The notes beneath the pieces were generated by a model. That model was not told the DNA's origin, did no database searches, and saw only the letters and a list, made by a program, of their open reading frames with translations. Below, piece by piece: positions 107 through 57,242 of a DNA stretch of 64,000 nucleotides (within the stretch, counting starts at the first letter, position 1; the number at the start of each line of letters is the position of its first letter). Source of the stretch: Escherichia phage vB_EcoM_G5211. The stretch lies in the sequence record MK327947.1, one strand, 5' to 3'. The position numbers were made by a program, and so were the translations under genes.

Positions 107-361
107 ATGACAGAAGACATTTTGTTAAAACTCTATGATCGTTTGGATAACGAATTAGCAACATTGCGGGGTGAAGTTCTCTATTTGTCTAAATGCAATA
201 CAGATCTGCTTAAGCAGATTGCAGAAAGGGATGATCAAATAAAATCCCTTTCAGGTGCATTACGTGATCGCGACAAGGCATTAGAGATTTTACAGCGTGT
301 TACCAATAAGGAAGAATTAAAAGACTTCTTACATGGTTATGCTCATGCTATCGATCTATAA
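107..361 (+). CDS. Hypothetical small protein (84 aa), charged, predicted coiled-coil
   Basis: ORF with RBS-like gagga upstream; heptad-like charged sequence; convergent with gene 2 and sharing the hairpin at 369-385. Confidence 0.45.
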   Translation: MTEDILLKLYDRLDNELATLRGEVLYLSKCNTDLLKQIAERDDQIKSLSGALRDRDKALEILQRVTNKEELKDFLHGYAHAIDL

Positions 362-392
362 TAAAAAAGCCCGTCAATGACGGGCTTAATGT
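362..392. terminator. Bidirectional rho-independent terminator hairpin (gcccgtc-aat-gacgggc) flanked by A-run and T-rich tract
   Basis: 7-bp GC stem 369-385, A6 upstream; lies between convergent ORFs. Confidence 0.6.
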
Positions 393-1224: not shown

Positions 1225-1698
1225 CTATTTGTTAAGCCCTTTAAAACCGAACACTTTCTTTAATGCATGTTCGGTTATGATCTTAAACTCCATGTTATGC
1301 TTTTGGCATAATTTCACGGCAGCTAACCATTTTTCAGTATTTTTTGTGTATGTCCATACTTCATGCATATATCGTTGCTTTGTCTTCGCGGTCATTCTTT
1401 TTGGCTTTTCCGGTGGCCTTGTCTCTTTAGCTGGTTTAACTTCCCATAAATGCTCCTTGCCATCATCAAACTTAACGTAAAAATCCATAAAGTATCTGTG
1501 TCTTTTCCCGTCTGTTGATGACTCATAAGGAATTACTACGGTCTCAGATCCCCATTTTGCAACTCTAGGATTGCGGTCTAGCCACTGCATGATCCATCTT
1601 TCCCAGCTTGAACGGTATGTGATCTTACGTATATCCCCTTTATACTTTTCCTTATTCTCAGGAACATACTTGCCCTTATAAGTGTTAGATCCTCCCAT
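1225..1698 (-). CDS. 4: gp4-like head completion protein
   Basis: 157 aa (T4 gp4 about 150 aa); synteny between gene 2 and gene 53. Confidence 0.55.
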   Translation of the reverse strand: MGGSNTYKGKYVPENKEKYKGDIRKITYRSSWERWIMQWLDRNPRVAKWGSETVVIPYESSTDGKRHRYFMDFYVKFDDGKEHLWEVKPAKETRPPEKPKRMTAKTKQRYMHEVWTYTKNTEKWLAAVKLCQKHNMEFKIITEHALKKVFGFKGLNK

Positions 1699-1713
1699 TT
1701 TAGCACCCTTTAT

Positions 1714-1721
1714 TATAAATA
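1714..1721 (+). promoter_or_regulatory. T4-type late promoter TATAAATA upstream of gene 53
   Basis: Exact TATAAATA about 33 nt upstream of ATG at 1754. Confidence 0.55.
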
Positions 1722-1753
1722 CATAATACTATTTATCAATTGAGGGTGCTAAA

Positions 1754-2308
1754 ATGCTCTTTTCTTTCTTCCCTGCCATTGAATACAACGGCAAGATGAT
1801 TACTGACATTGTGCGCAATTACCGCGCATATTTCAACGCAATAATTTCTGATTATAACATACAAACATATTACATTCAAGGTAGTCCACGACCGGAACAA
1901 GTTGCATATGAAGTATACGGAAACCAACAACTTTATTGGATCTTGCTGATGCTTAATGACGTATACGATCCGTTCCATGACTGGATCACCGATCAAGAGA
2001 CAGCCTATGAATCAGCCGAACAACGATATGCAAACGTAGGAGGAAATCAAGTATTATACCACGTTGATATTGACGGAAACAAGTATTGGAATCTTACCGA
2101 ATATCCGAAAGGATCAAGCAATTGGTATGATAAAGGGGATATTCATCACCGTCATTTGCAGTTTCAGGGTGCATTATCGGCAGTAGACACACTGGAAGAT
2201 GCGATCCTCCGCAATGAGGAACGACGCAAGATCAAGATCATAGATCCTACACAAATTAAACAATTTATTAACGCATTCATTCGAGAAATGGAAAAGGCTG
2301 ATGTGTAA
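1754..2308 (+). CDS. 53: gp53-like baseplate wedge protein
   Basis: 184 aa; immediately upstream of gene 5 as in T4. Confidence 0.6.
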   Translation: MLFSFFPAIEYNGKMITDIVRNYRAYFNAIISDYNIQTYYIQGSPRPEQVAYEVYGNQQLYWILLMLNDVYDPFHDWITDQETAYESAEQRYANVGGNQVLYHVDIDGNKYWNLTEYPKGSSNWYDKGDIHHRHLQFQGALSAVDTLEDAILRNEERRKIKIIDPTQIKQFINAFIREMEKADV

Positions 2309-2319
2309 GGTGATTAATT

Positions 2320-4119
2320 ATGCTAATGTTTAATAACTCCGTTAAATGGTTTACCGGAATTGTAGAAAACAGGGAAGACCCATTAATGCTGGGGCGTGTT
2401 CAGGTTAGGATTCATGGTATACATCCCTCGCTATCCGCACACGGTGACATTCAAGGTCTTCCAACCGAAGATCTATTATGGATTACGCCAGTACAAGATA
2501 TTACAAGCGCGGCGATCTCCGGTATAGGTCAAAGCCCTACTGGTATTGTTGAAGGTTCAATGGTATTTGGTTTGGCTTTAGATGAACGTTATTTAAACTG
2601 CGTTATTCTTGGTACTATTGCCGGACAATATACAGAGAAACCACTCACTACAGAGGGTTTTTGCGACCCTTCTGGTGCATATCCTCGTTATATTGGTAAT
2701 GATGTTAATATTCTTGCTCGTGGCGGTATTAACCCAGAAACCGGACAAACAACAAAACCTGATAGTGTCTATATTCGAGATGAAAACACTGGAGTTGCAG
2801 TAAATCCAGACGACGAGCCATTAGACCAAATTCCGGTTGATGATAATCCTGATTTTACAATCGAAAAAATGCTGCGGGGCGATGAGGGATATCGCGAGAA
2901 ATGGTATCTTGATTCAGAAGGATATCCGACAATAGGCATCGGGCATTTGATCATTTATAAGAAAACCAGTGATCTGGGTATTATCAATAATGAACTTTCT
3001 AAGCTGGTAGGGCGTGAAGTTACAAACGGAAGACTTACCGCCGAAGAAGTTAGTAAAGTATTTGCCGACGATATAGAAAAGACTCGTCGTGATATGCGCA
3101 AACATCCACGAATTGCACCTGTCTATAATAAATGTAATGCCTCACGTCGTATGGCATTAGAAAATATGGCGTTTCAAATGGGTGTTGGTGGATTGGGTAA
3201 ATTTAAGAATAGTCTTGCTGCGATGTTAGCGGAAGAATGGAAACAAGCCTATGATGGATTACGTCAATCGGTATGGGCTAACCAAACTCCAGGACGCTCC
3301 AGCCGTGTTTCTAAAATTATTTTAACTGGTAACTTAGAATCATATGGCGTAATTGCTCCAAAGAAAGAGGAATCAATTTCTGATGATCCGCGAGCACGTT
3401 TGAGAAATGCCCGTATTGCTGCCTATAAGACGCAGAGAGCAGAAGAAGACCCAGAAGCACCGTTTACCCCACAAGACACACGAATCATGTTTAAAGAGCC
3501 TAAGAGTTCGTATTCTGCTAGGTATCCTTATAACCATGTGTACGAGTCAGAGAGCGGTCATATTATCGAGATTGATGATACTCCTTCTCATGAGCGATAT
3601 CATCGTAAACATCCTTCGGGTACATTTGAAGAAACCAGACCGGACGGAACGAGGGTAGAAAAGATTGAAGGCGATGATTATCTGATCGTTAAACAAGGCC
3701 GGAAAGTAAACGTTAAGGGTAATTTGCAAGTTGTTGTTGAAGGTGACGCGCAAGTTTATTATATGGGCAATGTGATGCAAACCGTTGATGGTAACGTCAC
3801 TGAATTTATTCGTGGCAATGTTAATCAGACCGTTGAAGGTACTGCTAACATGCATGTTGTTGGTGATGTTATCGCACAGCTTGACGCTAATTTGACGGCT
3901 AACGTCAAGGGTAATGCTGAATTAATGATCGAGGGTAACACTACCGAAACAATTAAAGGTAACTATGATTTAACCGTTGAGGGTAATTTTAATATGACCG
4001 TCAATGGCACTAAATCAGATCAGGTTAATGGTGACTGGTCCCGTAATTGTGGTGCAAGCGTTAAAGATATTGCATCTGGTACAGTTCAAATTGATGGTAG
4101 CCGTATTGATTTTGGGTGA
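2320..4119 (+). CDS. 5: gp5 baseplate hub / cell-puncturing protein with tail lysozyme domain
   Basis: 599 aa; N-terminal OB-like region, central T4-lysozyme-like motif (DSEGYPTIGIGHL), C-terminal VxGxxxxx beta-helix repeats. Confidence 0.9.
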   Translation: MLMFNNSVKWFTGIVENREDPLMLGRVQVRIHGIHPSLSAHGDIQGLPTEDLLWITPVQDITSAAISGIGQSPTGIVEGSMVFGLALDERYLNCVILGTIAGQYTEKPLTTEGFCDPSGAYPRYIGNDVNILARGGINPETGQTTKPDSVYIRDENTGVAVNPDDEPLDQIPVDDNPDFTIEKMLRGDEGYREKWYLDSEGYPTIGIGHLIIYKKTSDLGIINNELSKLVGREVTNGRLTAEEVSKVFADDIEKTRRDMRKHPRIAPVYNKCNASRRMALENMAFQMGVGGLGKFKNSLAAMLAEEWKQAYDGLRQSVWANQTPGRSSRVSKIILTGNLESYGVIAPKKEESISDDPRARLRNARIAAYKTQRAEEDPEAPFTPQDTRIMFKEPKSSYSARYPYNHVYESESGHIIEIDDTPSHERYHRKHPSGTFEETRPDGTRVEKIEGDDYLIVKQGRKVNVKGNLQVVVEGDAQVYYMGNVMQTVDGNVTEFIRGNVNQTVEGTANMHVVGDVIAQLDANLTANVKGNAELMIEGNTTETIKGNYDLTVEGNFNMTVNGTKSDQVNGDWSRNCGASVKDIASGTVQIDGSRIDFG

Positions 4120-4127
4120 GGTAACTA

Positions 4128-4697
4128 ATGGTTGAAATTCTTCCGATGAGTTCAAAATTGGAGGATATCAGCGAGCGAGAAATCTTTGAGGTGGTGTTCT
4201 CTTATAAAGCAACGCCACCGGATGCAAATACCACATACACGATTAAAGAGTTTAAGATCAGCGAGTATCGCCCTAATAAGGGCGTTACCGTTGAAGAAAC
4301 TAAAATATCTGGTGAGTATAGGGATAGTTTTTCGCTTGGCGCGGATTCTCTTAAATATATAACGAAAGATCGAATTAAAAAATCTGCCGGAAGTTTTGAT
4401 GATTTACCAGATCCAACTACCGCAGATCTATATTATTTTAACGCTCCTACACGTCTACAGGAGGTTTATACTTATAAAGTAACCCTAACCTATATCCAAT
4501 CTGTTTCAGAGTCTTCTGGTGGTTCTGGTGAAGGAAATAGTGGTGGTTCCAGTAGCCGAGAGGGTGCTGGTGAAACTAATCCGCCTCCGGTAGTAACCGA
4601 GCACACAATAGAGAAAGTTTATACTCAAACCGTTTTTGGAAATTGGGATGTGTGGAGTAAACAGTTAAGAGATTATGTTAGAAGAAGTGAGGGATAA
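4128..4697 (+). CDS. Hypothetical protein in gp5.1 position
   Basis: 189 aa ORF directly downstream of gene 5; Gly/Ser-rich middle segment. Confidence 0.5.
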   Translation: MVEILPMSSKLEDISEREIFEVVFSYKATPPDANTTYTIKEFKISEYRPNKGVTVEETKISGEYRDSFSLGADSLKYITKDRIKKSAGSFDDLPDPTTADLYYFNAPTRLQEVYTYKVTLTYIQSVSESSGGSGEGNSGGSSSREGAGETNPPPVVTEHTIEKVYTQTVFGNWDVWSKQLRDYVRRSEG

Positions 4698-4698
4698 T

Positions 4699-5238
4699 AT
4701 GATTGAAGTAATTCATTACACCAAAGAAGATGAAATTTTATATAATAGACTACATGAACTATTTTATGAAGTTGACGGAAAGGTTTATAGAAGGTTCTCT
4801 CGTGGACGTTCTAAAGCCGGAAGTCTAGTTGGTGGATTGAAGATAAATCCATGTGGATATAGATATTGGAGACTTGCTGTTGATGGTAAAGAGTTTCAGA
4901 GGTCTCATGTTGTTTATCATATGCATCACGGACACACTCCAAAAAAACCACTACAAATAGATCATATTAACACAAACTCCCTTGACGACCGAGTTAGCAA
5001 TTTAAGACCAGTAACAGTTACTCAACAAATGTACAACCAAAATAAACAATCCGATTGCACATCTTCATATATTGGTGTTAATTGGAATAAAAATTCCAAA
5101 AAATGGGAAGCTAGAATTAGAGCTAATGGAAAACGAATCCGTTTAGGTCTATTTGATAATGAAATTGACGCTGCGATTGCCTATAACACCGCTGCATTAT
5201 CTAGAGATTCAAAAGTTAACAAATTAAACGATGTATGA
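4699..5238 (+). CDS. HNH homing endonuclease with C-terminal AP2 DNA-binding domain
   Basis: HNH motif (HHGHTPKKPLQIDHINTN...NLR) and AP2-like motif (YIGVNWNKNSKKWEARI...LGLFDNEIDAAIAYN); ATG at 4699 with RBS gaggga; inserted between 5.1 and 5.4. Confidence 0.75.
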   Translation: MIEVIHYTKEDEILYNRLHELFYEVDGKVYRRFSRGRSKAGSLVGGLKINPCGYRYWRLAVDGKEFQRSHVVYHMHHGHTPKKPLQIDHINTNSLDDRVSNLRPVTVTQQMYNQNKQSDCTSSYIGVNWNKNSKKWEARIRANGKRIRLGLFDNEIDAAIAYNTAALSRDSKVNKLNDV

Positions 5239-5253
5239 GGATGGGGGTGTTTA

Positions 5254-5547
5254 ATGGCTGGATTATCCTACGATAAAGCTAAAACTACAGGGCACGGAAA
5301 CTACCCACCTACTGTAATTAATGCAACTCAATCGAAGGTATTTGTTGAGGGTATCCCTGTATTAGTAGAAGGAGACCCAATTACACCACACACAAAAACA
5401 ACAAAGCCTTATGATACACACGGGGGAACTACGGTCGCCAGTACCCCGAAAGTCTTTGTTACCGGAAAGAAAGCAATTCAAATGGCAGATCGTATTAGCT
5501 GTGGCGATACCGTCGCTATGGCATCACCGAAGGTTTATATCAAATGA
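5254..5547 (+). CDS. 5.4: gp5.4-like PAAR-repeat spike-tip protein
   Basis: 97 aa, same size and position as T4 gp5.4. Confidence 0.7.
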
Positions 5548-7448
5548 CAAAGCAAAAGATTACACAAATTCCTGATATTTTTAATGCTGCTACATTCGAT
5601 GAAATTAAAAGCGCATTAACAGACTGGATGAGAAACCAGGAAGAATTTAAAGATTTTGATTTTAATGGTGCTGGTATTAACGTATTGATGGACTTGCTCG
5701 CATATAATACCCTTTATATTCAGCAATTCGCCAACGCCGCGCTATATGAATCTTTTATCAGAACGGCAATTAAGCGTAGTTCAGTTGTTCAAGCCGCGCA
5801 AGATTTAGGATATTTGCCAGCAAGTAAAACTAGTGCATCAACTACAATTATGTTGCATGTATCACATCCACGAAATCCGGCAAGTATTCGAATCCCACGA
5901 GGAACTAAATTTATTGCAAGTGTGGACCGCCAGACGTCTTATCCGTTTGTTACTACAGAAGACGTTGTGAGCGTTTTAGGTTCAAATGGTTTATATACTC
6001 CTATGCTTAAAGTCGCACAAGGTCGTATTGTTCGTACAGAAATGTTATTTGATCCGAAGAAACAAATTCTGATCCGCGATCCTGATATTGACCGCGCTCA
6101 GGTTAAATTGTGGGTGGATGGGGCTGAATGGAAAGACTGGACGCGAGAAAGTATTGTTAATGCAACTGGCGCCAGTAATATTTTCTATATGCGTGAAACC
6201 GTAGACGGTCATACAGAAATCTTCTTTGGTGAAGGTGAATCAACTTTATCTGCTGCTGGCGGTGCACTGGAAGCAAATTATATTGGTGGACTTAAGCCGT
6301 CAACTGGTGCTAATATTGTTATTGAATATATTAGCACTAAAGGCGCGGAAGCAAACGGATCTGTCAATTTCACATACGCGGATACCCTTGCATCTATCTC
6401 TATTGTTAAAATTATTGAGAATCCGACAAATGATCGTGATTATGTCGGTGCAGATGGTGGTGGTGATCCTGAATCAATCGAACGTATTCGTGAACTTGCT
6501 CCGGTAATGCGTGAATCTCAGCGTCGTTGTGTTACTGCTTCCGACTATGAGGCTTTTGTATCTAGCCGTTTTGGTAGTATTGTTCAGGCGGTACAATGTT
6601 TCACCGATCGAGAAAAACCAGGTTATGCTTTTGTTGCTGTTAAGCCTAAATCTGGTTTGCGATTGACAACTATTCAAAAAGAAGATATGCGGGATTATCT
6701 GGCAAAATATAACCTTGCCCCTATCACACCGAGCATCATTGACCCTAACTATCTGTATATTAAACAGAATATTAAAGTTTCCTATTCAATCAATGACTTA
6801 TCAGAATCAGAGCAGTGGTTGCGCGGTGCGGTTATTGATCAGATTGATGCATATTATACCGACGAAGTGGAAATTTTTAACCAGACCTTTAGTAAGTCTA
6901 AAATGCTTGCGCGTATTGACAAAGCTGATGTATCTGTGATAGGTTCTAGTGCAGAAATAGAGATGGTTCGAGAGATCGACAACTTCTATAAAGCACCTAT
7001 GGCGGGAATCAAGTTTTTAAACCAGTATAAGAGCGGAATCAAGTCTAGTTCGTTCAACTTCGAAAAGGACGGTAAACAATACCCGATCCATTATGTAAGT
7101 ACAGAAATGAACAAAGAATCCGGTTTAGCTAAATTGCTGGTTGGACCTTTCCCTGTTGATTCTACAATCGCTTTACCGCACTATTCCGGCACTGATTTTG
7201 ATAAAGAGGTTATTGACGGTGCGGACCTATACTTTGAGGTTGGAGAGGTTCAGCATTATGACGACCTTATTTCATGGGATCTGGGTAAACTGAATATCAA
7301 TAGCGATCGCTTTACTGGTTCATATATTGAGTTGACAGCTAAACCGATTGCTGATAACATCTTTACTAAAGACGGTTCTTTGATCGTGTTTGAAAACGAT
7401 CTCCGTCCTCAGTACACAACTATTAGTCTGGAGGCAATTGCTCAATGA
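5544..7448 (+). CDS. 6: gp6 baseplate wedge protein
   Basis: 634 aa; order and size match T4 gene 6; overlapping start/stop with neighbours. Confidence 0.8.
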
Positions 7449-10400
7449 TTAAAGCGCCTAGTGTAACTAGCTTGACAATAGAAAAATTGTCTGCTAATCA
7501 GGCGTATATCACATGGGATGACGTAGGCGAAAACTTCTTTTATTTTGTGGAGTTAGCCGAAACCAGAACACGAGACGGGGAGATCATCCCCGTCGATGAG
7601 TTAAGCTGGGTAAACCTGGGATATACTGCCGAACAAAACTGGTTTGAGGATAAAAACCTTTTTCCAGAATATTATTACAAGTTTCGTGTAGCAGTAGCCG
7701 CAGAAGGATTTGAACAAAGTAAATGGGTTGAGACAGAAGAGTTTCAGACATTTAAAACAAACGCATATAATTTTTCTATGATGCGAGAGTTCAACCTTGC
7801 AAACGAGTTTATAAAGGAAAAATTTACATACGATAATCGAGAGTATGTCAAGTTTAATACCGACCTTATTCAAGCATCATTGATGAAGGAAGATTTTGTC
7901 TTTAGTCCTGAATATGCAAACATGACAAATATCTCAAACTACATTGTAGTTGATGAGAACTTTCATGAAATACAGGACCACATAGAAAAAGTTTGTACTG
8001 ATATAAACCACACTATGTTAGCGGAAATGAACGGTGTTTTGTACCTTTTCGAACGGTTCCAGCCGATCGTGAAAGTGTCAAATGATAAAGGCCAATCATG
8101 GAAGGCATACAAGGCTTTTAATGACCGTGTAGGCAATCCGGTTTCCCGTACATGCGTTTATCAGTCTAAAACCACTACTTACGTTTTAGGATATGACCGA
8201 ATCTTTTACGGACGACAAGCGAGCGATACTCGATGGAGCGCGGACGATGTTCGATTTAGTGATGATACGATCACTTTTGCAAAGGTCGGTGACGAAAACG
8301 ATTTAGGCTTTGACGTTGAGGTCTTTGGTGTATTTTCCAGATTAACAGGTGATACCACAAAATACGCCGAAGCTATGGCGTGTAGTGATGACTATTTGTG
8401 GGTTGGTGCTAAAGATGTTATTCGCCGGATTCGTCTTAAGAATACTCCTGTTGATACCGTACAGGGTTCGCCTACGTTTGGAGAAAAAATATTCGATCCT
8501 GATGTTATCCGAGTAACAGGAAATGATAAAGCTGTCATTCAGAAAATGGATGTGGTCGACGGTAAATTGCTTGTATTTGTTACGGGTGAAGTTAAACAGC
8601 GTTATCAAGATCCAACTAAACCAGAAAACGTTGTTCCGTCAGATGATGCGGGTGTATACTTAATAGGGAGTGATGGTCTGTCTTTTCAGAGAGTATTTGG
8701 CAACACTCCGCAGGAAAGGGAATATATTCAGCATGGGTTCAGTAATATGTCAACCAATGGTGATGAGGTGTTCATAAGCCATTATAATCATCACTTCGAA
8801 AGCATTTTACCTGATCCAGAAACTGCCGAGAAATATGAATTGGGAGAAGCTGTAAAATATTCTCATGAGCCAACTTATCTAACTGATAAGAAAATACATC
8901 AAACTACTTTCAGAGCAAGTTATGATGATTTGCGTATTTGGGAGTTAGGACCGCAAGCGTATTATAATGAGGCCGATTATACATGGATGCGTCGAAACGG
9001 TGTCCGTGTGTGGATCACAAATGATAATCGCCCGTTGGTTGTTTATCCAGAGGTTATCTATACTCAAGAAGTTGATACATCTGGCATTCTTGACCAAAAT
9101 AGGATCAACCGAGAAGTTTATGATAAAGGGACCGTGACCTGTTATCTTAACAATGTTAAATTTGAAGGATTCAAACAATATGCATCCGGTGTAATGTTCC
9201 ATAAAAACACAGGAGAGATCATAGGATTCTATCAATTTAATTATCGTGTTCGTGATCAGGTTGGTGTATATTGGAAACCTACAAATGTAGCATTTGTTGC
9301 TGAATTGCAAAATCAGGTTCGAGAGGTTCCCTGGGTTCCGGTTCACTACGATCGAGAGCAAGATCCAGATTTGCGGCCTTTACTGAATAAGATGACCCCT
9401 GATAGCTTTTTACTTGAGAACGAAAATTTCAGAAAATTCTCTGAATATTATCTGCAATTCTTAAGCGATGGTTCAGGAACATATTATAATAAACTAAAAA
9501 ATCTGATTAAAAACAAATATCCACGCGAGAAAGATGCATATGAGTATCTTTGGTCAGAGATGAACAAACGAAACATCTATGCAGATAAAAACAAGCGAGA
9601 TGCGGTAGTAAGATTCTTTGAATCCCGCAAATCAGATTTTTATTCCACTAAGGGCGTGGAGGCTTCTTATAAGTTCTTGTTTAAGTTACTTTATAATGAA
9701 GATGTGGAAATTGAGGTTGAATCACAAGCCGGACTAGAGTATGATATTGTTGTTAGTTCAACGAACATTGACGAGGATATCGTAGGTCGCACGATTTATA
9801 CTCCAACCGGACGGGCTAACGTGACGTATCTTGAAAGGGAATATGAAGGTGGTCGCCTACGCTGGCGAGTAACCATTCATAACCTGATCGGGCGGTTCGA
9901 AGAAGGTCAAGTGATCAAATCAGAGAAAACAGCGTTTGAAGGGATGATCCTTGTTGGTGTACGTGGTAAAGAGTTGTTGAGTAGTTCAATCGACTATATC
10001 AACCGCTCACGAAGCCAATACACCATGAAGATTAAAAGTGCATTGCCAGTTTCGCGCTATGCAAATGATGTAATGCGATTCGTTCATCCTGTCGGCTTTG
10101 GGTTTATCGGTGTTACCCTGCTTACGATGTTCATTAACAGCGGGTTGAGCATGAAGCACACCGAGACGATAATTCAATCTCTGAAAAATTATAAGTTTGA
10201 CAGCGGATTGCCTAGCGTGTATCCTGATCGGGTGGCAGACCTTGACGTTGACGGAAACATTAAGAAAGACCCGCTTACCGGAAAAGCATTATATTTGACT
10301 TCACCTTTAATCGGTGATGAATTTCCGGTTCCTCCTGAATATGATCAGGAGAACAGCGAATTGTTCCACGGACTTAAAGCAAGCGAACGAAGATTTGCAA

Positions 10401-10531
10401 TGAGTCCACTGTTTGACCAGTCGGCGGTAACATTCTCTATGTTCCGTGAGCTTGTGGATAAACGGTTGAAGGATAATATAGGGAATCCACGCGATCCGAA
10501 GAATCCGACACAGAGGAAAATTAATGGCTAA
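7445..10531 (+). CDS. 7: gp7 baseplate wedge protein
   Basis: 1028 aa (T4 gp7 about 1032 aa); synteny. Confidence 0.85.
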   Translation: MIKAPSVTSLTIEKLSANQAYITWDDVGENFFYFVELAETRTRDGEIIPVDELSWVNLGYTAEQNWFEDKNLFPEYYYKFRVAVAAEGFEQSKWVETEEFQTFKTNAYNFSMMREFNLANEFIKEKFTYDNREYVKFNTDLIQASLMKEDFVFSPEYANMTNISNYIVVDENFHEIQDHIEKVCTDINHTMLAEMNGVLYLFERFQPIVKVSNDKGQSWKAYKAFNDRVGNPVSRTCVYQSKTTTYVLGYDRIFYGRQASDTRWSADDVRFSDDTITFAKVGDENDLGFDVEVFGVFSRLTGDTTKYAEAMACSDDYLWVGAKDVIRRIRLKNTPVDTVQGSPTFGEKIFDPDVIRVTGNDKAVIQKMDVVDGKLLVFVTGEVKQRYQDPTKPENVVPSDDAGVYLIGSDGLSFQRVFGNTPQEREYIQHGFSNMSTNGDEVFISHYNHHFESILPDPETAEKYELGEAVKYSHEPTYLTDKKIHQTTFRASYDDLRIWELGPQAYYNEADYTWMRRNGVRVWITNDNRPLVVYPEVIYTQEVDTSGILDQNRINREVYDKGTVTCYLNNVKFEGFKQYASGVMFHKNTGEIIGFYQFNYRVRDQVGVYWKPTNVAFVAELQNQVREVPWVPVHYDREQDPDLRPLLNKMTPDSFLLENENFRKFSEYYLQFLSDGSGTYYNKLKNLIKNKYPREKDAYEYLWSEMNKRNIYADKNKRDAVVRFFESRKSDFYSTKGVEASYKFLFKLLYNEDVEIEVESQAGLEYDIVVSSTNIDEDIVGRTIYTPTGRANVTYLEREYEGGRLRWRVTIHNLIGRFEEGQVIKSEKTAFEGMILVGVRGKELLSSSIDYINRSRSQYTMKIKSALPVSRYANDVMRFVHPVGFGFIGVTLLTMFINSGLSMKHTETIIQSLKNYKFDSGLPSVYPDRVADLDVDGNIKKDPLTGKALYLTSPLIGDEFPVPPEYDQENSELFHGLKASERRFAMSPLFDQSAVTFSMFRELVDKRLKDNIGNPRDPKNPTQRKING

Positions 10532-11519
10532 TGAAAATAGTGTGATCTATCGCTCAATCATTACTAGTAAATTCAGAACGGAAAAACTTCTGAATTTCTA
10601 TAATTCTGTAGGCGATGGGGCAAATCAAATTACAATTTATGGAACGTTTGGACGTTCGGAGCCGTGGTCAGAAAACGAAAAAGAGGTGGGCTTTGCCCCA
10701 CCTTATCCGACCGATTCAACGGCTGGTGTTGTTGACATGTGGACCCATATGATGGGGGCGGTTAAGATTAACAAATCACTTCTTGATGCGGTTATCCCTC
10801 GTAAAGATTGGGGTGATACCGGACAGGATAACCCGCGCACATTCTTTATCAATGACATTGTTGTTGTCAACTCAGCACCATATAACCGAACTGATGTTGG
10901 TAGCGGCTGGATGGTGTATCGCGTAACCGATGTTCCTGATCGCGGTTACTGCTCGATTTCAAGCATTGACGCTAAAGTAGAGTGTTTGAAGTTGGGCGGA
11001 AAGTGGACACCCACTCATGAATCAATTGCGCCACCTGTAGGAAAGGGCGATTCTATTGATATGGGTGATGGGTATCGTTGGGAATATCTGTACACAATTC
11101 CACCTGATGCGGCGATCAACCGTTGCACCAATGAACATATTGTTGTACCGTTCCCCGATGAACTGCGACAAGATCCGGCGCGTTGGGGTTATGACAATGT
11201 GATCACCTGGTATAATGACTATAATCTGCTTTATCGGCTGAAAGTAGTAACTTTGCGTTTTCAGGCTTATATGGACTCTGCGCAATTCCCAACTACCGCG
11301 TTAGTGGGTAATACTGGTTTCCGTCAGTTAAGCATTATCCTTAACCCATTGGAAAAGAAAGCACGCCCTAGCGATCCAGACGTTAAAGCGGTTGAAGATA
11401 AGTACCGACCGCAAGACTTAGAGCCACACTCAGGCGAAATGATCTACATGGAAAACCGACAACCTATCGTTCGGTCATTAGATCAAACAGAACTTGTTTC
11501 TGTATTGTTTGAGTTCTAA
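10524..11519 (+). CDS. 8: gp8 baseplate wedge protein
   Basis: 331 aa (T4 gp8 about 334 aa); synteny. Confidence 0.8.
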   Translation: MANENSVIYRSIITSKFRTEKLLNFYNSVGDGANQITIYGTFGRSEPWSENEKEVGFAPPYPTDSTAGVVDMWTHMMGAVKINKSLLDAVIPRKDWGDTGQDNPRTFFINDIVVVNSAPYNRTDVGSGWMVYRVTDVPDRGYCSISSIDAKVECLKLGGKWTPTHESIAPPVGKGDSIDMGDGYRWEYLYTIPPDAAINRCTNEHIVVPFPDELRQDPARWGYDNVITWYNDYNLLYRLKVVTLRFQAYMDSAQFPTTALVGNTGFRQLSIILNPLEKKARPSDPDVKAVEDKYRPQDLEPHSGEMIYMENRQPIVRSLDQTELVSVLFEF

Positions 11520-11534
11520 GTGTATGATTTAAAA

Positions 11535-11562
11535 AGCCAATTCTAGAGAGTTGGCTTTTTCT
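11535..11562 (+). terminator. Rho-independent terminator after gene 8
   Basis: Hairpin agccaa-ttctagagag-ttggct followed by TTTTT. Confidence 0.65.
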
Positions 11563-11572
11563 ATTTTGGGTG

Positions 11573-11600
11573 TTGACAATCTTGTCTGATAAGGTATAAT
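11573..11600 (+). promoter_or_regulatory. Sigma70-type (early-like) promoter: TTGACA, 16-nt spacer, TATAAT
   Basis: Perfect -35 and -10 hexamers; RBS ggagg and ATG at 11630 downstream. Confidence 0.7.
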
Positions 11601-11629
11601 GCTCACATCTAAACAACGGAGGATAAATT

Positions 11630-11887
11630 ATGGCACGTCGTAAATTTACAGATAATTGTGAAGCAATTCAGGTATCCCCTTGCGGTTGGGATGTGATCGC
11701 GAACGGTGAAAAGATCGGAGAGATCATCGATCATACTCATTCATCACTAGCCGATTACACCGATGAACTATGGGAGGGTATCAACTTCATGAATGACACT
11801 AAACGATTCAAGACTATCGACGAAGCTATCTATTTTGTGTATAATCCAACTTTCGGTATGTGGGGAACTAGAAAATGGCACGCGTAA
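11630..11887 (+). CDS. Hypothetical protein (85 aa), first gene of inserted cassette
   Basis: ORF with RBS; overlaps next ORF; absent from T4 8-9 junction. Confidence 0.5.
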   Translation: MARRKFTDNCEAIQVSPCGWDVIANGEKIGEIIDHTHSSLADYTDELWEGINFMNDTKRFKTIDEAIYFVYNPTFGMWGTRKWHA

Positions 11888-12207
11888 ACATTAAACTACA
11901 CTACACAATGGGTAAAGCTAAGTTCCCAATGCAAAAGCATTACTATGGTCTACGTGCACAAGATCCAAAACTCTATGGTACTCATTGGTTTTGTAAACAT
12001 GATAACCAATGGCACACATACGAAGAAATGCACGAGATGATGAAACAGGGTATTGAATTGAGTTATTCTAATTATGACCATCGTATAACTTGCATTCGAA
12101 AATTGAAACGATGGATTCGTAAGAATCCGCAATTTAAAAACTTTGTGTTCTTTATGTCTCATGTTTATTTGGGACATAGCGTTACCGTCACAGCAAAGGT
12201 TAAATAA
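11875..12207 (+). CDS. Hypothetical protein (110 aa), second gene of inserted cassette
   Basis: ORF with RBS gggga; stop overlaps next start (TAATG). Confidence 0.5.
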   Translation: MARVNIKLHYTMGKAKFPMQKHYYGLRAQDPKLYGTHWFCKHDNQWHTYEEMHEMMKQGIELSYSNYDHRITCIRKLKRWIRKNPQFKNFVFFMSHVYLGHSVTVTAKVK

Positions 12208-13046
12208 TGGCACGACTTTCTAAACAAGAACAAAAATTACACGATCGGGTGATGGAGTTGATTAATTCAGATCGCCCATTGACATATGAAGAAAAAGAAT
12301 TTTGCTATAATAACTATCATGGCGATGGTCTAGGCGGTTCAGGTGCATTCTTTACCCCAGAAGGGCTTGCATGGGATTTTACCATCGATGCACATTGCAC
12401 AGGAAAAGTATTAGATCTTTGTGCTGGGATCGGTCGCTTATCTTTTTGTATGTTACATCGTTGTAAGCCAGAAAAGATCGTATGCGTCGAACTCAATCCA
12501 GAATTTGCGCGGATTGGCAAGCGACTATTACCGGAGGCAGAATGGATCACCAGCGATGTATTCGAATTTGAGTCAAACGAAAAATTCGATGTGGTGATCA
12601 GCAATCCACCCTTCGGGAAAATCAATACAACCGACACAAAGGATGTATTTGAGTACACTGGTGGCGAATTTGAATTTAAGGTTATGACATTAGGCCAGAA
12701 GTTTGCCGATGTAGGTTATTTTATTGTTCCTTCTGGTTCCGCTGGTTTTGCCTATTCCGGCAGACCTTATTATGACGGGACCATGAAGTCTAATAAATAT
12801 CTAAAATGGAGCAAACAAACTGGTTTGGTGACTTATGCCGGATGTGGGATCGATACATCAATCTATCGTGATGAATGGCATAGTACCAACGTTTTAACAG
12901 AAGTGGTTGAGGTTCGGTATTACGAGAAAGAAGCCGTAGAAGCGCCTAAATCACGTCCTAACGAACAAATAGAAGAAAGTAAGGAGATTACCTTACCGAA
13001 ACAGGAAAGCGAGTCTGGGACGCTCTCAGATTTGTTTGACATTTAA
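12207..13046 (+). CDS. Putative gamma-class amino-methyltransferase (likely DNA N6-adenine MTase)
   Basis: Motif X-like GAFFTPEG, motif I VLDLCAGIGRL, motif IV VISNPPFG in gamma order; 279 aa. Confidence 0.65.
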   Translation: MARLSKQEQKLHDRVMELINSDRPLTYEEKEFCYNNYHGDGLGGSGAFFTPEGLAWDFTIDAHCTGKVLDLCAGIGRLSFCMLHRCKPEKIVCVELNPEFARIGKRLLPEAEWITSDVFEFESNEKFDVVISNPPFGKINTTDTKDVFEYTGGEFEFKVMTLGQKFADVGYFIVPSGSAGFAYSGRPYYDGTMKSNKYLKWSKQTGLVTYAGCGIDTSIYRDEWHSTNVLTEVVEVRYYEKEAVEAPKSRPNEQIEESKEITLPKQESESGTLSDLFDI

Positions 13047-13052
13047 TTATAA

Positions 13053-13077
13053 GCCGTCCTTGTGGACGGCTTTTTTG
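13053..13077 (+). terminator. Rho-independent terminator closing the inserted cassette
   Basis: Hairpin gccgtcc-ttgt-ggacggc followed by TTTTTT. Confidence 0.7.
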
Positions 13078-13086
13078 TATGTGTTT

Positions 13087-13094
13087 TATAAATA
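13087..13094 (+). promoter_or_regulatory. T4-type late promoter TATAAATA upstream of gene 9
   Basis: Exact TATAAATA about 28 nt upstream of ATG at 13122. Confidence 0.6.
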
Positions 13095-13121
13095 ATACAT
13101 CATAACATGAGGAATTAAACA

Positions 13122-13976
13122 ATGGCACAAGTTCCAAAGAAAAGAATAGACACAGGTACTGTCGGCAATCCATCGACTGGCGATATCTTATATGATGGCG
13201 GTAATAAAATTAACGATAACTTTGATTCAATATATGACGCATTTGCTGATCAACGTCTAAAAGAGATTGATCATGGTGCTGGTCGAATGGTTATTCATGC
13301 CACGGGATACTATCAGAAACACCCACGACAAAGCTATGCAGGGTCGGCGGTAGAGATTGGTAGCTTACATGATATTGACACAACTCAAGGCGCATTAATA
13401 GCAATTCTTCCTAAAGCTAAAGTCGGTGAGGGTGTTGTGTTCATAAATAGTAACGGTAGCTTTTCGGCAACAACACCACTAAACATTAGAACTCAAGCAG
13501 GAGATTCTATTAGCGGGTATTCCGGTGACGCGGTAATAACTCAACCTTTCTCAAAAGTCACCGTCTGGTGTACTGCCGTCGAAGGTAGTAGAGTTACCTG
13601 GCGGCTAGGCATCGAAAGTATGTTTACCGACACAACCACACCACTAGATAGGACAGTTAATGTAACTGGAGTTGCAACCAACGTTGCTATTGCAGCAAAA
13701 ACAGAATATGTATCAATTAAACTATTAACAACCGCTAGCAATACGACGGGTTCAAAAATGCGCTCAAGCGAAACTCTATTGATGATTGATGCCAGAGCCG
13801 GAAAAGTTTACGCGACAGAATATGCGGTTTTACAGAAAACAGAAGACGAATTATACACGGTTCGTTATTTCATTGGTTCCGGCGATAAAGTATATGCAGA
13901 GTATAAGGCTACTGGCGAAAATATTCGTTTAGCAGTTAAAGCCACAGACACTATTAAAATCGGGGTTGCTACATGA
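13122..13976 (+). CDS. 9: gp9 baseplate wedge / long tail fiber socket protein
   Basis: 284 aa (T4 gp9 288 aa); synteny. Confidence 0.8.
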   Translation: MAQVPKKRIDTGTVGNPSTGDILYDGGNKINDNFDSIYDAFADQRLKEIDHGAGRMVIHATGYYQKHPRQSYAGSAVEIGSLHDIDTTQGALIAILPKAKVGEGVVFINSNGSFSATTPLNIRTQAGDSISGYSGDAVITQPFSKVTVWCTAVEGSRVTWRLGIESMFTDTTTPLDRTVNVTGVATNVAIAAKTEYVSIKLLTTASNTTGSKMRSSETLLMIDARAGKVYATEYAVLQKTEDELYTVRYFIGSGDKVYAEYKATGENIRLAVKATDTIKIGVAT

Positions 13977-15775
13977 AACAATTAATTAATATCGGTAACG
14001 TTGTAGATGACGGTACTGGTGATTATCTAAGAAAAGGCGGTCAAAAGATCAACGACAACTTTTCTGAACTTTATACTAAGCTGGGGGATGGAGATACCCC
14101 CCACGCATCCGGTGCATGGAAAACGCATACAGATCCATTATTAAAGCCTAATTTTGGTGATGCGTGGGCTATCAATACAACAAACAACGCGGTGTCGGTA
14201 GAGCTTCCTAAAGGTGGCGTTGGTGATTATAACAAGACAATTAAACTTCGTGATGTTTGGCGCTCGTGGGCGTCTCATAACGTAACACTTAAGCCAGCAC
14301 AAGGTGATACCATTAAGGGATCTCCAATCGACCGTGAGTTGTATAAAGATTTTATGGATGTTGAATTGGTTTATTGTGCGCCTGGACGCTGGGAATATAT
14401 CGAAAATAAGCGAGTTGACACGATCACCACGTCTGACCTAAGCACAGTAGCTAAGGAAGTTTATATTGCCACAGAAGGGCAAACAGATTTCCCTAATGTA
14501 TTTGGTTCTAACACATATAACACTCGAAATGTTGAAGTATATTATCGAGGAAACCTTTTATATTATGGCAAGTCTTTTAGTAATGACTCTAACTACGGTT
14601 CAATCGGTGAGGATGGATCACTTGTTGAACTTGATGGCAAAAGCATAAAACTTCGTTTTCCTTGTTCGGCTGGGGACACCGTTCAAATTATTACATATAT
14701 GGACGGAATTGCATCATTCCGGTCTAGTTATATCACACACACAATTAGAGTGTATGATACCGGAATGACAGCACTAGAAACTATTCCGGGTGAAGTGTGG
14801 GTAGGTGATTTATCGACGAAAAAAGAATTTACCAATGCTGATTTGGGAGTTAGTAAACGTGATATAATTAACCCAAATTCATTTGAGTTATTAATAAATG
14901 GTACTCAAATGATTAAAGCTGGTGATGCTGATCTTCCTTCGTTTGTTTGTGAAGGTGCTGACGGAGAAACCGAAGAGAGTTGCGCACTTGCTGGCGGTCA
15001 GTGGGTACAGTCTGGAGAAGATTATTCACTGGTATTTGATGAGAATAGCATTGTAACAGGGATTAAATTAGCTAAAGCGTTGGACAATAGAGATACTATC
15101 ACAATTCGTTGGTTTAATAACGATATCGGAACTCTATTAGAATGGGATGGTGTCGGCGGAATTAAAGAAAAAGCAGACAAGATTTATCTCAATAACGAAG
15201 ACGAAGTTAATTTAACAAAACAAATTGAATATACCGACTTCCAGAATCCCAGCCAGAAAAACACTCGTCCGGCAGAAGAGTATTCAGGTCGAATTATGGA
15301 TATATATGCACTGTTTGATATTTTCCATCCGATCGGCACGATATACGAAAACGCACATAACCCAGCTAACCCAGCGACCTATATGGGTATTGGTATCTGG
15401 GTTCGGTATGCGGAAGGAGAATTTCTTGCTGGTTGGTCTTCCGATGCCAGCGACCAGAATTTTGCATTAAACAATAACGATCTTGATATTCATGGACAAC
15501 CTACACACACCGCTGGTGGTACTGGTGGTGAAGTTGCCTATCAAATCAAGAAAGATATGATTCCTGAATTACAATCCAGCGATCGTGTTTTGGTGAAAGA
15601 CGATACAGGGTCAATTATCATTGGTGGTTGTCAAGTTGATCCCGATGCGGCAGGTCCAGCGTTTACGAAATATAGAGAGGATATCGTAAAAGTTAATTCT
15701 GGAAATGCTGATCCATCAATGATGGGCATTCTTCCTCCATATCGCACCGTTCATCGCTGGTTAAGGGTAGGTTAA
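13973..15775 (+). CDS. 10: gp10 baseplate wedge protein
   Basis: 600 aa (T4 gp10 602 aa); synteny. Confidence 0.8.
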   Translation: MKQLINIGNVVDDGTGDYLRKGGQKINDNFSELYTKLGDGDTPHASGAWKTHTDPLLKPNFGDAWAINTTNNAVSVELPKGGVGDYNKTIKLRDVWRSWASHNVTLKPAQGDTIKGSPIDRELYKDFMDVELVYCAPGRWEYIENKRVDTITTSDLSTVAKEVYIATEGQTDFPNVFGSNTYNTRNVEVYYRGNLLYYGKSFSNDSNYGSIGEDGSLVELDGKSIKLRFPCSAGDTVQIITYMDGIASFRSSYITHTIRVYDTGMTALETIPGEVWVGDLSTKKEFTNADLGVSKRDIINPNSFELLINGTQMIKAGDADLPSFVCEGADGETEESCALAGGQWVQSGEDYSLVFDENSIVTGIKLAKALDNRDTITIRWFNNDIGTLLEWDGVGGIKEKADKIYLNNEDEVNLTKQIEYTDFQNPSQKNTRPAEEYSGRIMDIYALFDIFHPIGTIYENAHNPANPATYMGIGIWVRYAEGEFLAGWSSDASDQNFALNNNDLDIHGQPTHTAGGTGGEVAYQIKKDMIPELQSSDRVLVKDDTGSIIIGGCQVDPDAAGPAFTKYREDIVKVNSGNADPSMMGILPPYRTVHRWLRVG

Positions 15776-15776
15776 T

Positions 15777-16421
15777 ATGATTTCTAAAACACGTTCTAAA
15801 GCAAGCGTATTTTCTAGCGACGCAGCATTCATTTCATACGATCCGGGGTCGAAAGACCCCATTATTGGTGACATTCGCCCAATTGGTGGATTAAACGTAG
15901 ACCAATCTCGCAAAGGTTCTTTTATTAACAACGTACAATCAGCCATTGATGATTTGTATAGCATTTCTATGCTTAATGTCGGTGATGTATTGGTAACTAC
16001 AAATTCAACTCCACCGGAAGCGGCTGGACAAATAGAAACTCTTTCTTTCACTGGAACGGTAACAAATAAACACGATCCAGCCGCGACAAAAGTTGTAATT
16101 GAAGTTTTGGGTTATCCATTTGTTGTTAATGTTGGAACATCGAATGTTGCATTATGCGAAATGGTCACAACAAAATTTACTGAATTGAAAGACAAAAGTA
16201 TCTTATTCTCTAAAGTTGAGAGGAAAGGTACTGGCAACGATAAAATAGAGATTCAGTATATTGATTCAAACGCACACGAAGCAACGGTCGTAGAAAAATA
16301 TGGTATTAGCGTTCGTGGGGAAATAAATTCCCCTGCTCGTTATGGTTATGGTGCATGGTCCAGATTGGGAACGGAAGAAAAATTTGATTCAACACTATTT
16401 TATTTTAAGCGTATTGCGTAA
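15777..16421 (+). CDS. 11: gp11 baseplate wedge / short tail fiber attachment protein
   Basis: 214 aa (T4 gp11 219 aa); synteny. Confidence 0.8.
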   Translation: MISKTRSKASVFSSDAAFISYDPGSKDPIIGDIRPIGGLNVDQSRKGSFINNVQSAIDDLYSISMLNVGDVLVTTNSTPPEAAGQIETLSFTGTVTNKHDPAATKVVIEVLGYPFVVNVGTSNVALCEMVTTKFTELKDKSILFSKVERKGTGNDKIEIQYIDSNAHEATVVEKYGISVRGEINSPARYGYGAWSRLGTEEKFDSTLFYFKRIA

Positions 16422-16432
16422 GGTGTAAAATT

Positions 16433-17836
16433 ATGAATAACACTATTAATCACGTAAAAGACGATGCACAGTATGTTAAGTTTGACCCTACCGGAAATTG
16501 GCCTAGCAATATAAAAAACGTACAAGCGGCATTAGCCGCTATTCAGGGATTTGCGATTGCAGGTCTTCCAACGGCAACCGAAGAAACAGCGGGTATTGCT
16601 GAAATTGCTACTCAACAAGAAGTAGATGATGGGTTGGATGGAACGAAAATTGTTACCCCAAAAACATTGGCTGTTAAGCTGTCAAGACCGGACGCAACAA
16701 AACTTGTCAAAGGGATCACTCGCTATGCTAATAACGATGAAGCTATGGGCGATACTCCAAATATTGCAATTGGTCCTGATACATTAACCCATGTATTCGA
16801 GAACAAGAAAGCAACGGAAACCGTACAGGGTACAATTAAAATCTGTTCTATGGATGCGGCAAAAATAGGTAGCGATGACACTATGGCAGTAACGCCTAAA
16901 AAGATGCACGCTGCTATTGCTCAGATTGTTCCAGGGTTGATTCCAGAACAAAACACGGCGACCGAGTCCCGTGAGGGTTTAGTTAGACTGGCGACAAGCC
17001 AACAAACGCTTGCTGGTACTATCAGAGAAGGATTTGCCGTTAGTCCATATGCATTTTCCAACGCAAGAGCCAATGAAAATCAGGCGGGTACTGTTAAAAT
17101 TGCCTCATCCCAACAAATGATTGACGGCAATGACAACACAGTAGTAGTATCAGCACAAAAATTTGCGAACACTAAAGCAACCACTGGACAATTCGGTGTT
17201 GTTAAGCTAACAGATAACCCAGGATCAGGCGAGGCAAACACAGCACTGTCGGCAAACGCTCGTGTATTGCCTCTAAGTGGTGGTGTCGTTACTGGTGATG
17301 TGTATCGTCATAGCGGAGGCGACGGAAACCAGTTTATCATTAAAAATGAACTGGATGGTCTTTGTATGCCTATTGGTGGCATCATTCTTACAGCATTTAA
17401 CAGTTTCGACCACGCACAATTCAAAATCTGTAACGGTCAATGGTTAAATAAACACCAATATCCAGTATTATTTTCACGAATCGGTTTCACTTATGGCGGA
17501 GATGGTGGAGACAACTTTGCTCTACCCGATATGCGAGGGCTTGTTGCTAGAGGATGCGACCACGGTCGAGGACTAGACCCAGGTCGTGGATTTGGTACTT
17601 ATCAAGACGACACCATGCAACATATGACAGGTAACTTCCCTGTAGCTAACCGTTGGCGCGGTTGGACTGGTGGTGCATTTGCCATCACAGGCGGTCAATG
17701 GAGCACGAACTATAAAAACGGTGGTGGCGATGATTGGGGTAGTATTGTTAACTTTGACAGCGCAAGACAGGTTAGAACGTCTGGCGAAACTCGCGTTAAA
17801 AGCCTTGCATTAAACTACATGATAAGGGTACAATAA
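16433..17836 (+). CDS. 12: gp12 short tail fiber
   Basis: 467 aa; position between gene 11 and wac; shorter than T4 gp12 (527 aa). Confidence 0.75.
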   Translation: MNNTINHVKDDAQYVKFDPTGNWPSNIKNVQAALAAIQGFAIAGLPTATEETAGIAEIATQQEVDDGLDGTKIVTPKTLAVKLSRPDATKLVKGITRYANNDEAMGDTPNIAIGPDTLTHVFENKKATETVQGTIKICSMDAAKIGSDDTMAVTPKKMHAAIAQIVPGLIPEQNTATESREGLVRLATSQQTLAGTIREGFAVSPYAFSNARANENQAGTVKIASSQQMIDGNDNTVVVSAQKFANTKATTGQFGVVKLTDNPGSGEANTALSANARVLPLSGGVVTGDVYRHSGGDGNQFIIKNELDGLCMPIGGIILTAFNSFDHAQFKICNGQWLNKHQYPVLFSRIGFTYGGDGGDNFALPDMRGLVARGCDHGRGLDPGRGFGTYQDDTMQHMTGNFPVANRWRGWTGGAFAITGGQWSTNYKNGGGDDWGSIVNFDSARQVRTSGETRVKSLALNYMIRVQ

Positions 17837-19605: not shown

Positions 19606-19611
19606 GAAATT

Positions 19612-19635
19612 AAAGGGGCGTTAAGCCCCTTTTCC
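19612..19635 (+). terminator. Rho-independent terminator after wac
   Basis: Hairpin ggggc-gttaa-gcccc followed by TTTT; same hairpin in opposite orientation at 53588-53607 and 57610-57630. Confidence 0.65.
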
Positions 19636-19651
19636 GTTTATAGGTGATATT

Positions 19652-20584: not shown

Positions 20585-20601
20585 TTTATTGGGGGAGTAT
20601 T

Positions 20602-39614: not shown

Positions 39615-39652
39615 TTTGTATACTGTATTTATTGCATACGGAGATTTTTACT

Positions 39653-56485: not shown

Positions 56486-56514
56486 AGTATAGGGGATCTC
56501 CCGATCCCCGTCAA
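56486..56514 (-). promoter_or_regulatory. Early promoter cassette (TTGACG, 17 nt, TATACT) with GATC palindrome
   Basis: Spacer gggatcgggagatcccc; conserved leader and RBS. Confidence 0.6.
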
Positions 56515-56528
56515 CAACTTTTTTAAAA

Positions 56529-56810: not shown

Positions 56811-56843
56811 TTTTGATTCTCCAGTTCGTTTCGGTATGGGTGT

Positions 56844-56872
56844 ATTATGCTATGTTCTTACTTTGGTGTCAA
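56844..56872 (-). promoter_or_regulatory. Early promoter cassette (TTGACA, 17 nt, CATAAT)
   Basis: tgtcaa 56867-56872 and attatg 56844-56849 on plus strand. Confidence 0.65.
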
Positions 56873-56880
56873 CAACTTTT

Positions 56881-57150: not shown

Positions 57151-57190
57151 TGTTTGATTCTCCTAAGTGGTATCTCGTTTCGATGGGTGT

Positions 57191-57219: not shown

Positions 57220-57242
57220 CAACTTTTTTAATTTTTTGGAAA

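Follow-up and report, generated by a model that had tools for sequence, protein, structure and literature searches.

A free-standing HNH-AP2 homing endonuclease cassette at the 5.1/5.4 junction of Escherichia phage vB_EcoM_G5211, with a scattered distribution in Krischvirus

Results

An HNH-AP2 reading frame between two baseplate genes

The DNA analyzed here (the window) is a stretch of 64,000 nucleotides from Escherichia phage vB_EcoM_G5211 (MK327947.1). The closest match to the region is Escherichia phage vB_EcoM_G37-3, at 99.7% identity; about 60 records of Krischvirus, the RB49-like relatives of T4, match it at 97-98%. Near its beginning, the genes for gp53, gp5 (with its OB, lysozyme and C-terminal repeat domains) and a gp5.1 homologue are followed by an intact ORF of 179 aa plus a stop codon, and then by the genes for gp5.4, gp6 and gp7. 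The ORF, its functional parts and its immediate neighbors map as follows.

4128..4697, + strand: gp5.1 homologue, 189 aa (PHROG 1168; annotated 5.1 in RB49)
4689..4693, + strand: GAGGG, Shine-Dalgarno sequence of the endonuclease ORF, read from the sequence; it sits inside the new C-terminal codons of gp5.1
4699..5238, + strand: HNH-AP2 homing endonuclease ORF, 179 aa (Pfam, PHROG, phmmer, Foldseek)
4906..5031, + strand: HNH_3 nuclease domain, aa 70-111 (Pfam PF13392)
4960-4965, + strand: D88-H89, conserved HNH motif residues
4999-5001, + strand: N101 (of NLR), conserved
5026-5028, + strand: Q110, in place of the usual metal-binding Asn (alignment)
5035-5037, + strand: N113, conserved
5065..5202, + strand: AP2 DNA-binding domain, aa 123-168 (Pfam, phmmer, Foldseek; three strands and a helix in the model)
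5254..5547, + strand: gp5.4 PAAR spike-tip protein, the downstream flank (PF05488 PAAR motif, 3.1e-11)

The gp5.1 stop codon (TAA, 4695-4697) is separated from the ATG at 4699 by a single nucleotide. A mechanical list of ORFs offered an alternative upstream ATG at 4675, for a product of 187 aa; the start at 4699 is favored by alignment with a paralogue in phage Whisky (MKENVIHYTEED...) and by the Shine-Dalgarno sequence. The record of phage Ec_Makalu_003 has an annotated ribosome-binding site at the position matching 4689-4693. A tblastn search of the window found no second copy of the 179-aa protein.

The two domains were identified by several independent routes. Pfam assigned HNH_3 to residues 70-111 (E 6.4e-10; 39 bits against a cut-off of 24.8) and AP2 (PF00847) to residues 123-168 (E 9.1e-8), the latter at 32.7 bits, 0.6 below its cut-off of 33.3. 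Independent support for AP2 came from phmmer searches of the PDB, which matched the AP2 domain of Arabidopsis WRI1 (E 3.9e-6) and, more weakly, that of AtERF1 (E 0.05). The ORF also matched PHROG 99, 'HNH endonuclease' (2.4e-46); NCBIfam held no family for it and none for gp5.1. In an AlphaFold model of the protein (mean pLDDT 81.2), the HNH region forms two strands (residues 85-89 and 102-106) and a helix (107-114), and the AP2 region three strands (127-130, 135-142 and 145-152) and a helix (155-169). Foldseek aligned the N-terminal half of this model with I-HmuI (1u3e; probability 1.0, 98 columns, 28% identity), and the AP2 part with AtERF1 (1gcc; TM 0.76 on the target, probability 1.0), TEM1 AP2 (7et5, probability 1.0) and WRI1 AP2.

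A preliminary description of this DNA, made from its letters, had proposed a free-standing HNH nuclease fused to an AP2 domain, lying in the gene 5 - gene 6 interval between a gp5.1-like ORF and a PAAR gene and tightly packed behind the upstream stop codon. The Pfam, phmmer and Foldseek matches bear out the fusion, PHROG 1168 and PF05488 confirm the neighbors, and the packing is as described. A terminase-associated HNH packaging factor was considered and rejected. Such proteins adjoin the terminase genes of cos-type phages and have no separate sequence-specific DNA-binding domain, whereas this gene lies between baseplate genes 5.1 and 5.4 and encodes an AP2 domain; terminase genes 16 and 17 of RB49 are about 17 kb downstream of the 5.1/5.4 junction. 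The combination of an N-terminal HNH and a C-terminal AP2 domain in one free-standing ORF is instead that of the HNH-AP2 class, known from phages, bacteria and protists (Magnani et al. 2004; PMC2993671).

A rare glutamine at the metal-ligand position

The nuclease domain has the beta-beta-alpha fold of its family with a catalytic Asp-His dyad and a structural Asn (NLR), and D88, H89 and N101 were invariant in two alignments. The position 21 residues beyond H89, which aligns with the metal-binding Asn of HNH nucleases, is Gln110 in all five carriers of the gene (described below); the equivalent residue was Asn in 13 of 13 aligned relatives. A word-indexed homologue search gave only 12 matches, but an exhaustive search of representatives showed a very large family, with 110,302 representatives at E <= 1e-3. 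The best 150 of these representatives held 126 instances of the motif, with Asn at this position in 123 and Gln in 3: one was the cluster of the 179-aa protein itself, and the other two were unrelated members (P0034 and P0158).

I-HmuI has the canonical Asn as metal ligand, and Gln110 occupies the position equivalent to its N96. Glutamine keeps the amide oxygen that asparagine uses. Because of this, and because the protein is under purifying selection (see below), we consider it likely, judging from the sequence, that the Gln110 protein is an active nuclease; the substitution might conceivably change the chemistry without abolishing it, for example by restricting the enzyme to nicking or by shifting its choice of metal.

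The same residue invites another explanation, that of a decaying homing gene, which would have arrived by homing, had its catalysis crippled by the change from Asn to Gln, and since persisted and moved by ordinary homologous recombination, which is very frequent in T4-like phages. The presence of Gln in every carrier, against Asn in 123 of 126 instances, speaks for it. The retained amide oxygen, the recurrence of Gln in two unrelated proteins and the intact remainder of the motif (D88, H89, N101 and N113) speak against it, and together with the population data below lead us to regard decay as unlikely.

Anatomy of the inserted cassette

We determined the boundaries of the insertion from an alignment of 17 sequences spanning gene 53 to gene 7.

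4679..5243, + strand: cassette of 565 nt, inserted where the empty allele has ACATA (net gain 560 nt)
5243..5247, + strand: GGGGG run, ribosome-binding site of gp5.4; on the right the cassette is bounded at 5243/5244, and GGGGTGTTTAATGG is common to the empty allele
1714..1721, + strand: TATAAATA, T4-type late promoter consensus upstream of gene 53 (pattern search; consensus only)

The empty allele reads ...AGAGATTATGT-ACATA-GGGGTGTTTAATGG... and the carrier allele ...AGAGATTATGT-(565 nt)-GGGGTGTTTAATGG..., the cassette consisting of a new end of gp5.1 that holds the endonuclease ribosome-binding site, the ORF, and five bases entering the G-tract ahead of 5.4. Within the cassette gp5.1 ends in ..DYVRRSEG* (189 aa), compared with ..DYVHRGV* (188 aa) in the empty allele. 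Both flanking virion genes thus appear intact and translatable after insertion, and they would stay expressed because the cassette gives gp5.1 a replacement C-terminus and stop codon and spares the gp5.4 ribosome-binding site. The gp5.4 gene itself has zero carrier-specific substitutions.

The late promoter consensus at 1714 is the only + strand copy of TATAAATA before 13087, and for this reason it likely drives a 53-5-5.1-HEG-5.4-6-7-8 transcript, HEG standing for the endonuclease ORF. With the nearest late promoter consensus at 1714 and the next at 13087, the cassette looks promoter-less and would be read from the late baseplate transcript. A scan of 1600-5700 for sigma-70 promoters and terminators showed no excess over shuffled sequence (13 versus 12.5, and 2 versus 2.2, respectively). 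Seven free-standing endonuclease genes of T4 are read from the transcripts of their neighbors, and several are translationally coupled to the upstream gene (PMC2988022).

Presence and absence across Krischvirus

Across 50,697 phage records the gene occurs in six only, which represent five phages (G37-3, MIZ4, MIZ5, KFS-EC and Ec_Makalu_003) with 98-100% protein identity. All other matches fell below 60% identity, and over the full length at most 45% was reached outside the five carriers. Three of the records, MIZ4, the KFS-EC RefSeq entry and Ec_Makalu_003, already annotate an HNH endonuclease; in the literature we found no paper on the insertion of the 179-aa gene at 5.1/5.4. Krischvirus also has paralogues 39-42% identical to the protein, which adjoin dam and the helicase-loader gene.

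The preliminary description had suggested comparing this junction in related phages, and the comparison revealed a presence/absence polymorphism. Counting occupancy over all records with a 101-nt junction probe, we found the 179-aa gene (type A) in 5 of about 51 sequenced Krischvirus phages, a 246-aa HNH gene (type B) in 6, and an empty site in about 40. The empty phages comprise RB49, JSE, Phi1 and a further 37 or so; in them the stop codon of 5.1 overlaps the start codon of 5.4 as TAATG. A gene present or absent at one fixed site, with precise boundaries and intact flanks, in phages otherwise 97-99% identical, has the profile of a free-standing homing endonuclease.

Presence and absence alone give no direction, and the gene might instead be ancestral and have been lost from most lineages. 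We consider this very improbable: the compact TAATG junction is common to the roughly 40 empty phages, the most divergent ones included; the cassette brings a replacement gp5.1 C-terminus and has a foreign GC content (below); its carriers are scattered over flanking haplotypes; and relatives above 60% identity are absent outside the five carriers.

Horizontal spread and purifying selection

Difference matrices for genes 53-5, 5.1, 5.4, 6 and 7 placed individual carriers next to empty phages. For genes 53-5, G37-3 was nearest to empty MIZ2 (9 differences in 2366) and the window to empty G2248 (12 differences); MIZ4 was nearest to empty E26 for gene 6 (12 differences in 1899) and identical to empty Phi1 for gene 5.4. 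The carriers are not monophyletic in their flanking genes, and the incongruence between the distribution of the gene and the flanking phylogeny points to horizontal spread. In KFS-EC the 179-aa gene directly precedes a 5' end of 5.4 that has been recoded (5262-5314 holds 17 substitutions), a tract seen elsewhere only behind the 246-aa gene in JEP8 and Whisky. This indicates that recombination has taken place at the right edge of the cassette, no more than a few bases from 5243, and KFS-EC seems to be a recombinant of the type-A and type-B alleles. The base composition of the ORF (34.3% GC, GC3 21.7%) also differs from that of the neighboring genes (40-43%, GC3 30-39%).

Four distinct alleles of the gene contain 14 variable sites, of which 4 alter the protein and 10 are silent. 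Set against 424 non-synonymous and 113 synonymous sites, this corresponds to a dN/dS of about 0.11 (binomial p 7e-5), so the 179-aa protein is under purifying selection while diversifying. The window allele differs from those of the other carriers by 1.1-1.7% (6-9/540 nt), and the same pairs differ by 1.4-3.5% in genes 53-5 and 6. As the divergence of the gene is only slightly under that of its flanks, there is no sign of a very recent sweep. The earlier characterization of the element as a recent mobile insertion therefore holds for insertion and mobility, and "recent" only in relation to the flanking genes.

These data also bear on the decaying-gene explanation. In its favor are the modest frequency of the gene (about 10%), an allele divergence similar to that of the flanks, and the lack of a visible extended co-conversion tract. 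Against decay, the ORF is intact in all five carriers, and the low dN/dS implies selection on the protein. That selection could in turn signal domestication, with the protein kept because it benefits the phage (for example by sequence-specific binding of DNA or a regulatory role via AP2, or by attacking competitor genomes) and not for its own spread. The well-preserved AP2 domain and the atypical nuclease motif agree with such a role, and there are precedents in the co-option of homing-endonuclease DNA-binding domains (PMC10448857) and in I-TevI acting as an autorepressor (PMC2988022). Yet the gene is dispensable, being absent from about 90% of close relatives, six of which have a different endonuclease gene in its place, and the catalytic D-H dyad has been kept; domestication therefore seems to us improbable.

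Mosaicism and further insertions outside the cassette

Several differences between the window and its relatives lie outside the cassette. From gene 5.4 through gene 7 the window shows 0 differences from G37-3 in gap-free columns (window 1754-10531 compared), and in genes 53-5 it has 23, G2248 being closer (12); the genome is thus a mosaic and differs from a plain copy of G37-3. In the G37-3 record, which over that span is 2 nt shorter, gene 6 is annotated as two CDS; gene 6 of the window is intact (634 aa). From 5.4 to gene 13 (5241-20601) the window is 88.7% identical to RB49 overall, compared with 97-99% elsewhere, indicating a strongly diverged segment within this block. Part of the small-ORF region of RB49 (117.4-123.7 kb) has been deleted or rearranged in the window (56500-59800).

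Two further ORFs of the window are insertions relative to RB49.

20581-21246, + strand: 221-aa ORF, in a 700-nt insertion between genes 13 and 14
39632-40384, + strand: 250-aa ORF, in a 754-nt insertion between inh and uvsW

The first has a weak match, below the cut-off, to the I-TevI DNA-binding domain (E 3.4e-4) and is probably a seg-like free-standing endonuclease gene. The second, with SegE-type GIY-YIG (5.4e-8) and GIY-YIG (9.4e-6) domains, is a candidate free-standing homing endonuclease. Relatives in turn have extra ORFs that are missing from the window. MIZ2 has an annotated homing endonuclease between genes 4 and 53 (locus 3404-4099), and JSE, Phi1, G2248, ECD7 and G37-3 have an ORF of 340-380 aa between ORF130w and gene 2 (loci about 1590-2800), where the window has only 361..392 between the corresponding genes.

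Flanking substitutions and a candidate target site

We compared the five carriers with 10 empty phages over 8216 gap-free columns, which extend leftward from the insert for about 2.9 kb and rightward for about 5.3 kb. The only fixed differences between carriers and empty phages in these columns were at 4679-4693, the recoded end of gp5.1 that we counted as cassette. This patch and a cluster just upstream of it are the two densest patches of variation in the 8.2 kb alignment.

4656..4665, + strand: seven-SNP cluster, AGTAAACAGT in the window and GCGCAGCAAC in most empty alleles; gp5.1 A-Q-Q-L becomes S-K-Q-L

We saw no extended co-conversion tract: across genes 53, 5, 5.1, 5.4, 6 and 7, carrier-specific SNPs did not extend beyond 45 nt on the left and 0 nt on the right. 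If self-immunity rests on sequence differences within the 8.2 kb, its determinants would be the insertion itself and the adjacent changes only.

The 7 substitutions in 10 nt at 4656-4665 remove a GC-rich motif, GGGCGCAGC. Over all records, 5/5 type-A carriers, 4/6 type-B carriers and 8/40 empty phages have the cluster, an association with occupancy that is significant by Fisher tests ignoring relatedness (p 0.001 for type A versus empty, 0.0003 for any occupant versus empty). The cluster may determine recognition or immunity, or it may be a marker co-converted tightly with the cassette. It could equally be the haplotype in which the cassette first landed, dragged along by tight linkage, because it also occurs in eight phages whose site is empty. 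AP2 domains are reported to prefer GC-rich sites, a statement made in PMC10448857 with Magnani 2004 as its source; as the cluster destroys just such a motif, we propose that the AP2 domain may read GGGCGCAGC. By default one would not expect the target to lie at the junction, because the characterized free-standing endonucleases of T4 usually cleave at a distance of hundreds to thousands of bp from the gene that encodes them (PMC2988022).

A second HNH gene at the same junction

The type-B gene occupies the 5.1/5.4 junction in six phages (JEP8, Skers, G2494, W115, Whisky and GEC-3S), and Whisky alone has a third gene nearby.

Whisky locus 7162-7902 and JEP8 locus 7162-7902: 246-aa HNH_3 ORF at the 5.1/5.4 junction
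Whisky locus 8200-8754: third HNH-AP2 gene, 184 aa, 41% identical to the 179-aa protein, between 5.4 and 6

The 179-aa and 246-aa proteins both belong to HNH_3 and are 31% identical. An AP2 match to the 246-aa protein was weak for the JEP8 copy (E 0.006, 17.3 bits) and lacking for the Whisky copy; the alignment suggests degenerate AP2-like repeats. The 246-aa gene is preceded by a GC-rich hairpin (GGCGGGTGTCGATGCCCCGCC) and an AT-rich promoter-like stretch, unlike the promoter-less cassette of the window.

The two genes may compete, as the KFS-EC recombinant hints. One could go further and read 5.1/5.4 as a contested site at which two HNH genes displace each other, with the 4656-4665 cluster as a circulating allele of cleavage resistance, since it accompanies both endonuclease genes and also occurs in about 20% of the empty genomes. 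We regard this extended reading as doubtful; if it is true, resistance at the target site would here have evolved naturally against a homing element.

Discussion

The cassette as a probable homing element

We conclude, with a probability of roughly three in four, that 4679-5243 is a promoter-less, free-standing HNH-AP2 homing endonuclease cassette that homes into empty 5.1/5.4 alleles. It is mainly the replacement of Asn by Gln at the metal ligand that keeps us from rating active homing higher. The mechanism that we infer would begin with transcription as part of the late baseplate transcript from the promoter at 1714 and with translation coupled to that of gp5.1. In a mixed infection, the AP2 domain would bind the empty 5.1/5.4 allele of a co-infecting relative, probably contacting the GC-rich GGGCGCAGC ... 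ATAGGGGTG stretch. The HNH domain would then nick or cut nearby, at or near the junction 15-40 bp from the GGGCGCAGC motif, and recombinational repair off the carrier genome would copy the cassette together with a few tens of bp of its left flank. The carrier allele would be immune, the insertion splitting the junction and the 4656-4665 cluster removing the GC-rich motif. The predicted outcome is intronless homing with localized marker exclusion.

Comparison with known systems

HNH-AP2 homing genes have been noted explicitly in RB49 and RB43 (PMC1524935) and counted for RB49, JSE, RB43, RB16 and KP15 (PMC2993671, Table 5). The 179-aa gene resembles these T4-related genes (e.g. RB49ORF040c, and those of JSE, RB43 and RB16) in architecture, phage group, free-standing state and patchy distribution. 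It differs from them in lineage (<=45% identity), in its late-operon site between 5.1 and 5.4, and in having Gln for Asn.

The nearest solved relative of the nuclease domain is I-HmuI of Bacillus phage SPO1 (PDB 1u3e), an HNH nicking enzyme with the same order of nuclease followed by DNA-binding module; I-HmuI, however, is intron-encoded, and its C-terminal module is a helix-turn-helix instead of AP2. I-HmuI, MobA and MobE nick a single strand and are over-inherited in crosses (PMC2988022). With mobA-E of T4 the cassette shares the form of a free-standing, promoter-less element, and like them it would be coupled in its translation to the gene upstream and transcribed along with host genes. The T4 mob genes encode other C-terminal DNA-binding regions, without AP2, and are not detectably orthologous to it, and most mob genes in Table 1 of PMC2988022 adjoin genes of nucleotide metabolism or replication and not a virion-structural operon.

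Alternative occupancy of one position also has a counterpart. According to Sandegren et al. 2005, as cited in PMC2988022, SegH and Hef stand in place of mobC and mobE at the same positions in T4-related phages. The 179-aa and 246-aa genes are likewise alternative endonuclease genes at one intergenic position, with the difference that both occupants of 5.1/5.4 are HNH_3 proteins, whereas the SegH/Hef and mobC/mobE genes are unrelated. The IPA-HNH proteins of Vibrio phage ICP1 (PMC10448857) resemble the 179-aa protein in having HNH before AP2 and in lying where genetic exchange between related phages has its boundaries; the HNH domains from ICP1 have diverged too far to match the HNH_3 profile (PMC10448857), which the 179-aa protein matches directly.

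Implications for Krischvirus

The element is an ordinary free-standing HNH-AP2 homing endonuclease cassette of an already described class, and even if this interpretation is right little changes in the general picture, because HNH-AP2 homing genes were already described in RB49-type phages between 2004 and 2010. It accounts for a length difference of 560 bp within a conserved virion operon in phages used in therapy cocktails, and it predicts a localized marker bias around genes 5.1 and 5.4 in mixed infections. With three allelic states, a stretch of 10 nt that may determine immunity, and a seldom-seen Gln at the HNH metal-ligand position, the junction offers a small natural test system.
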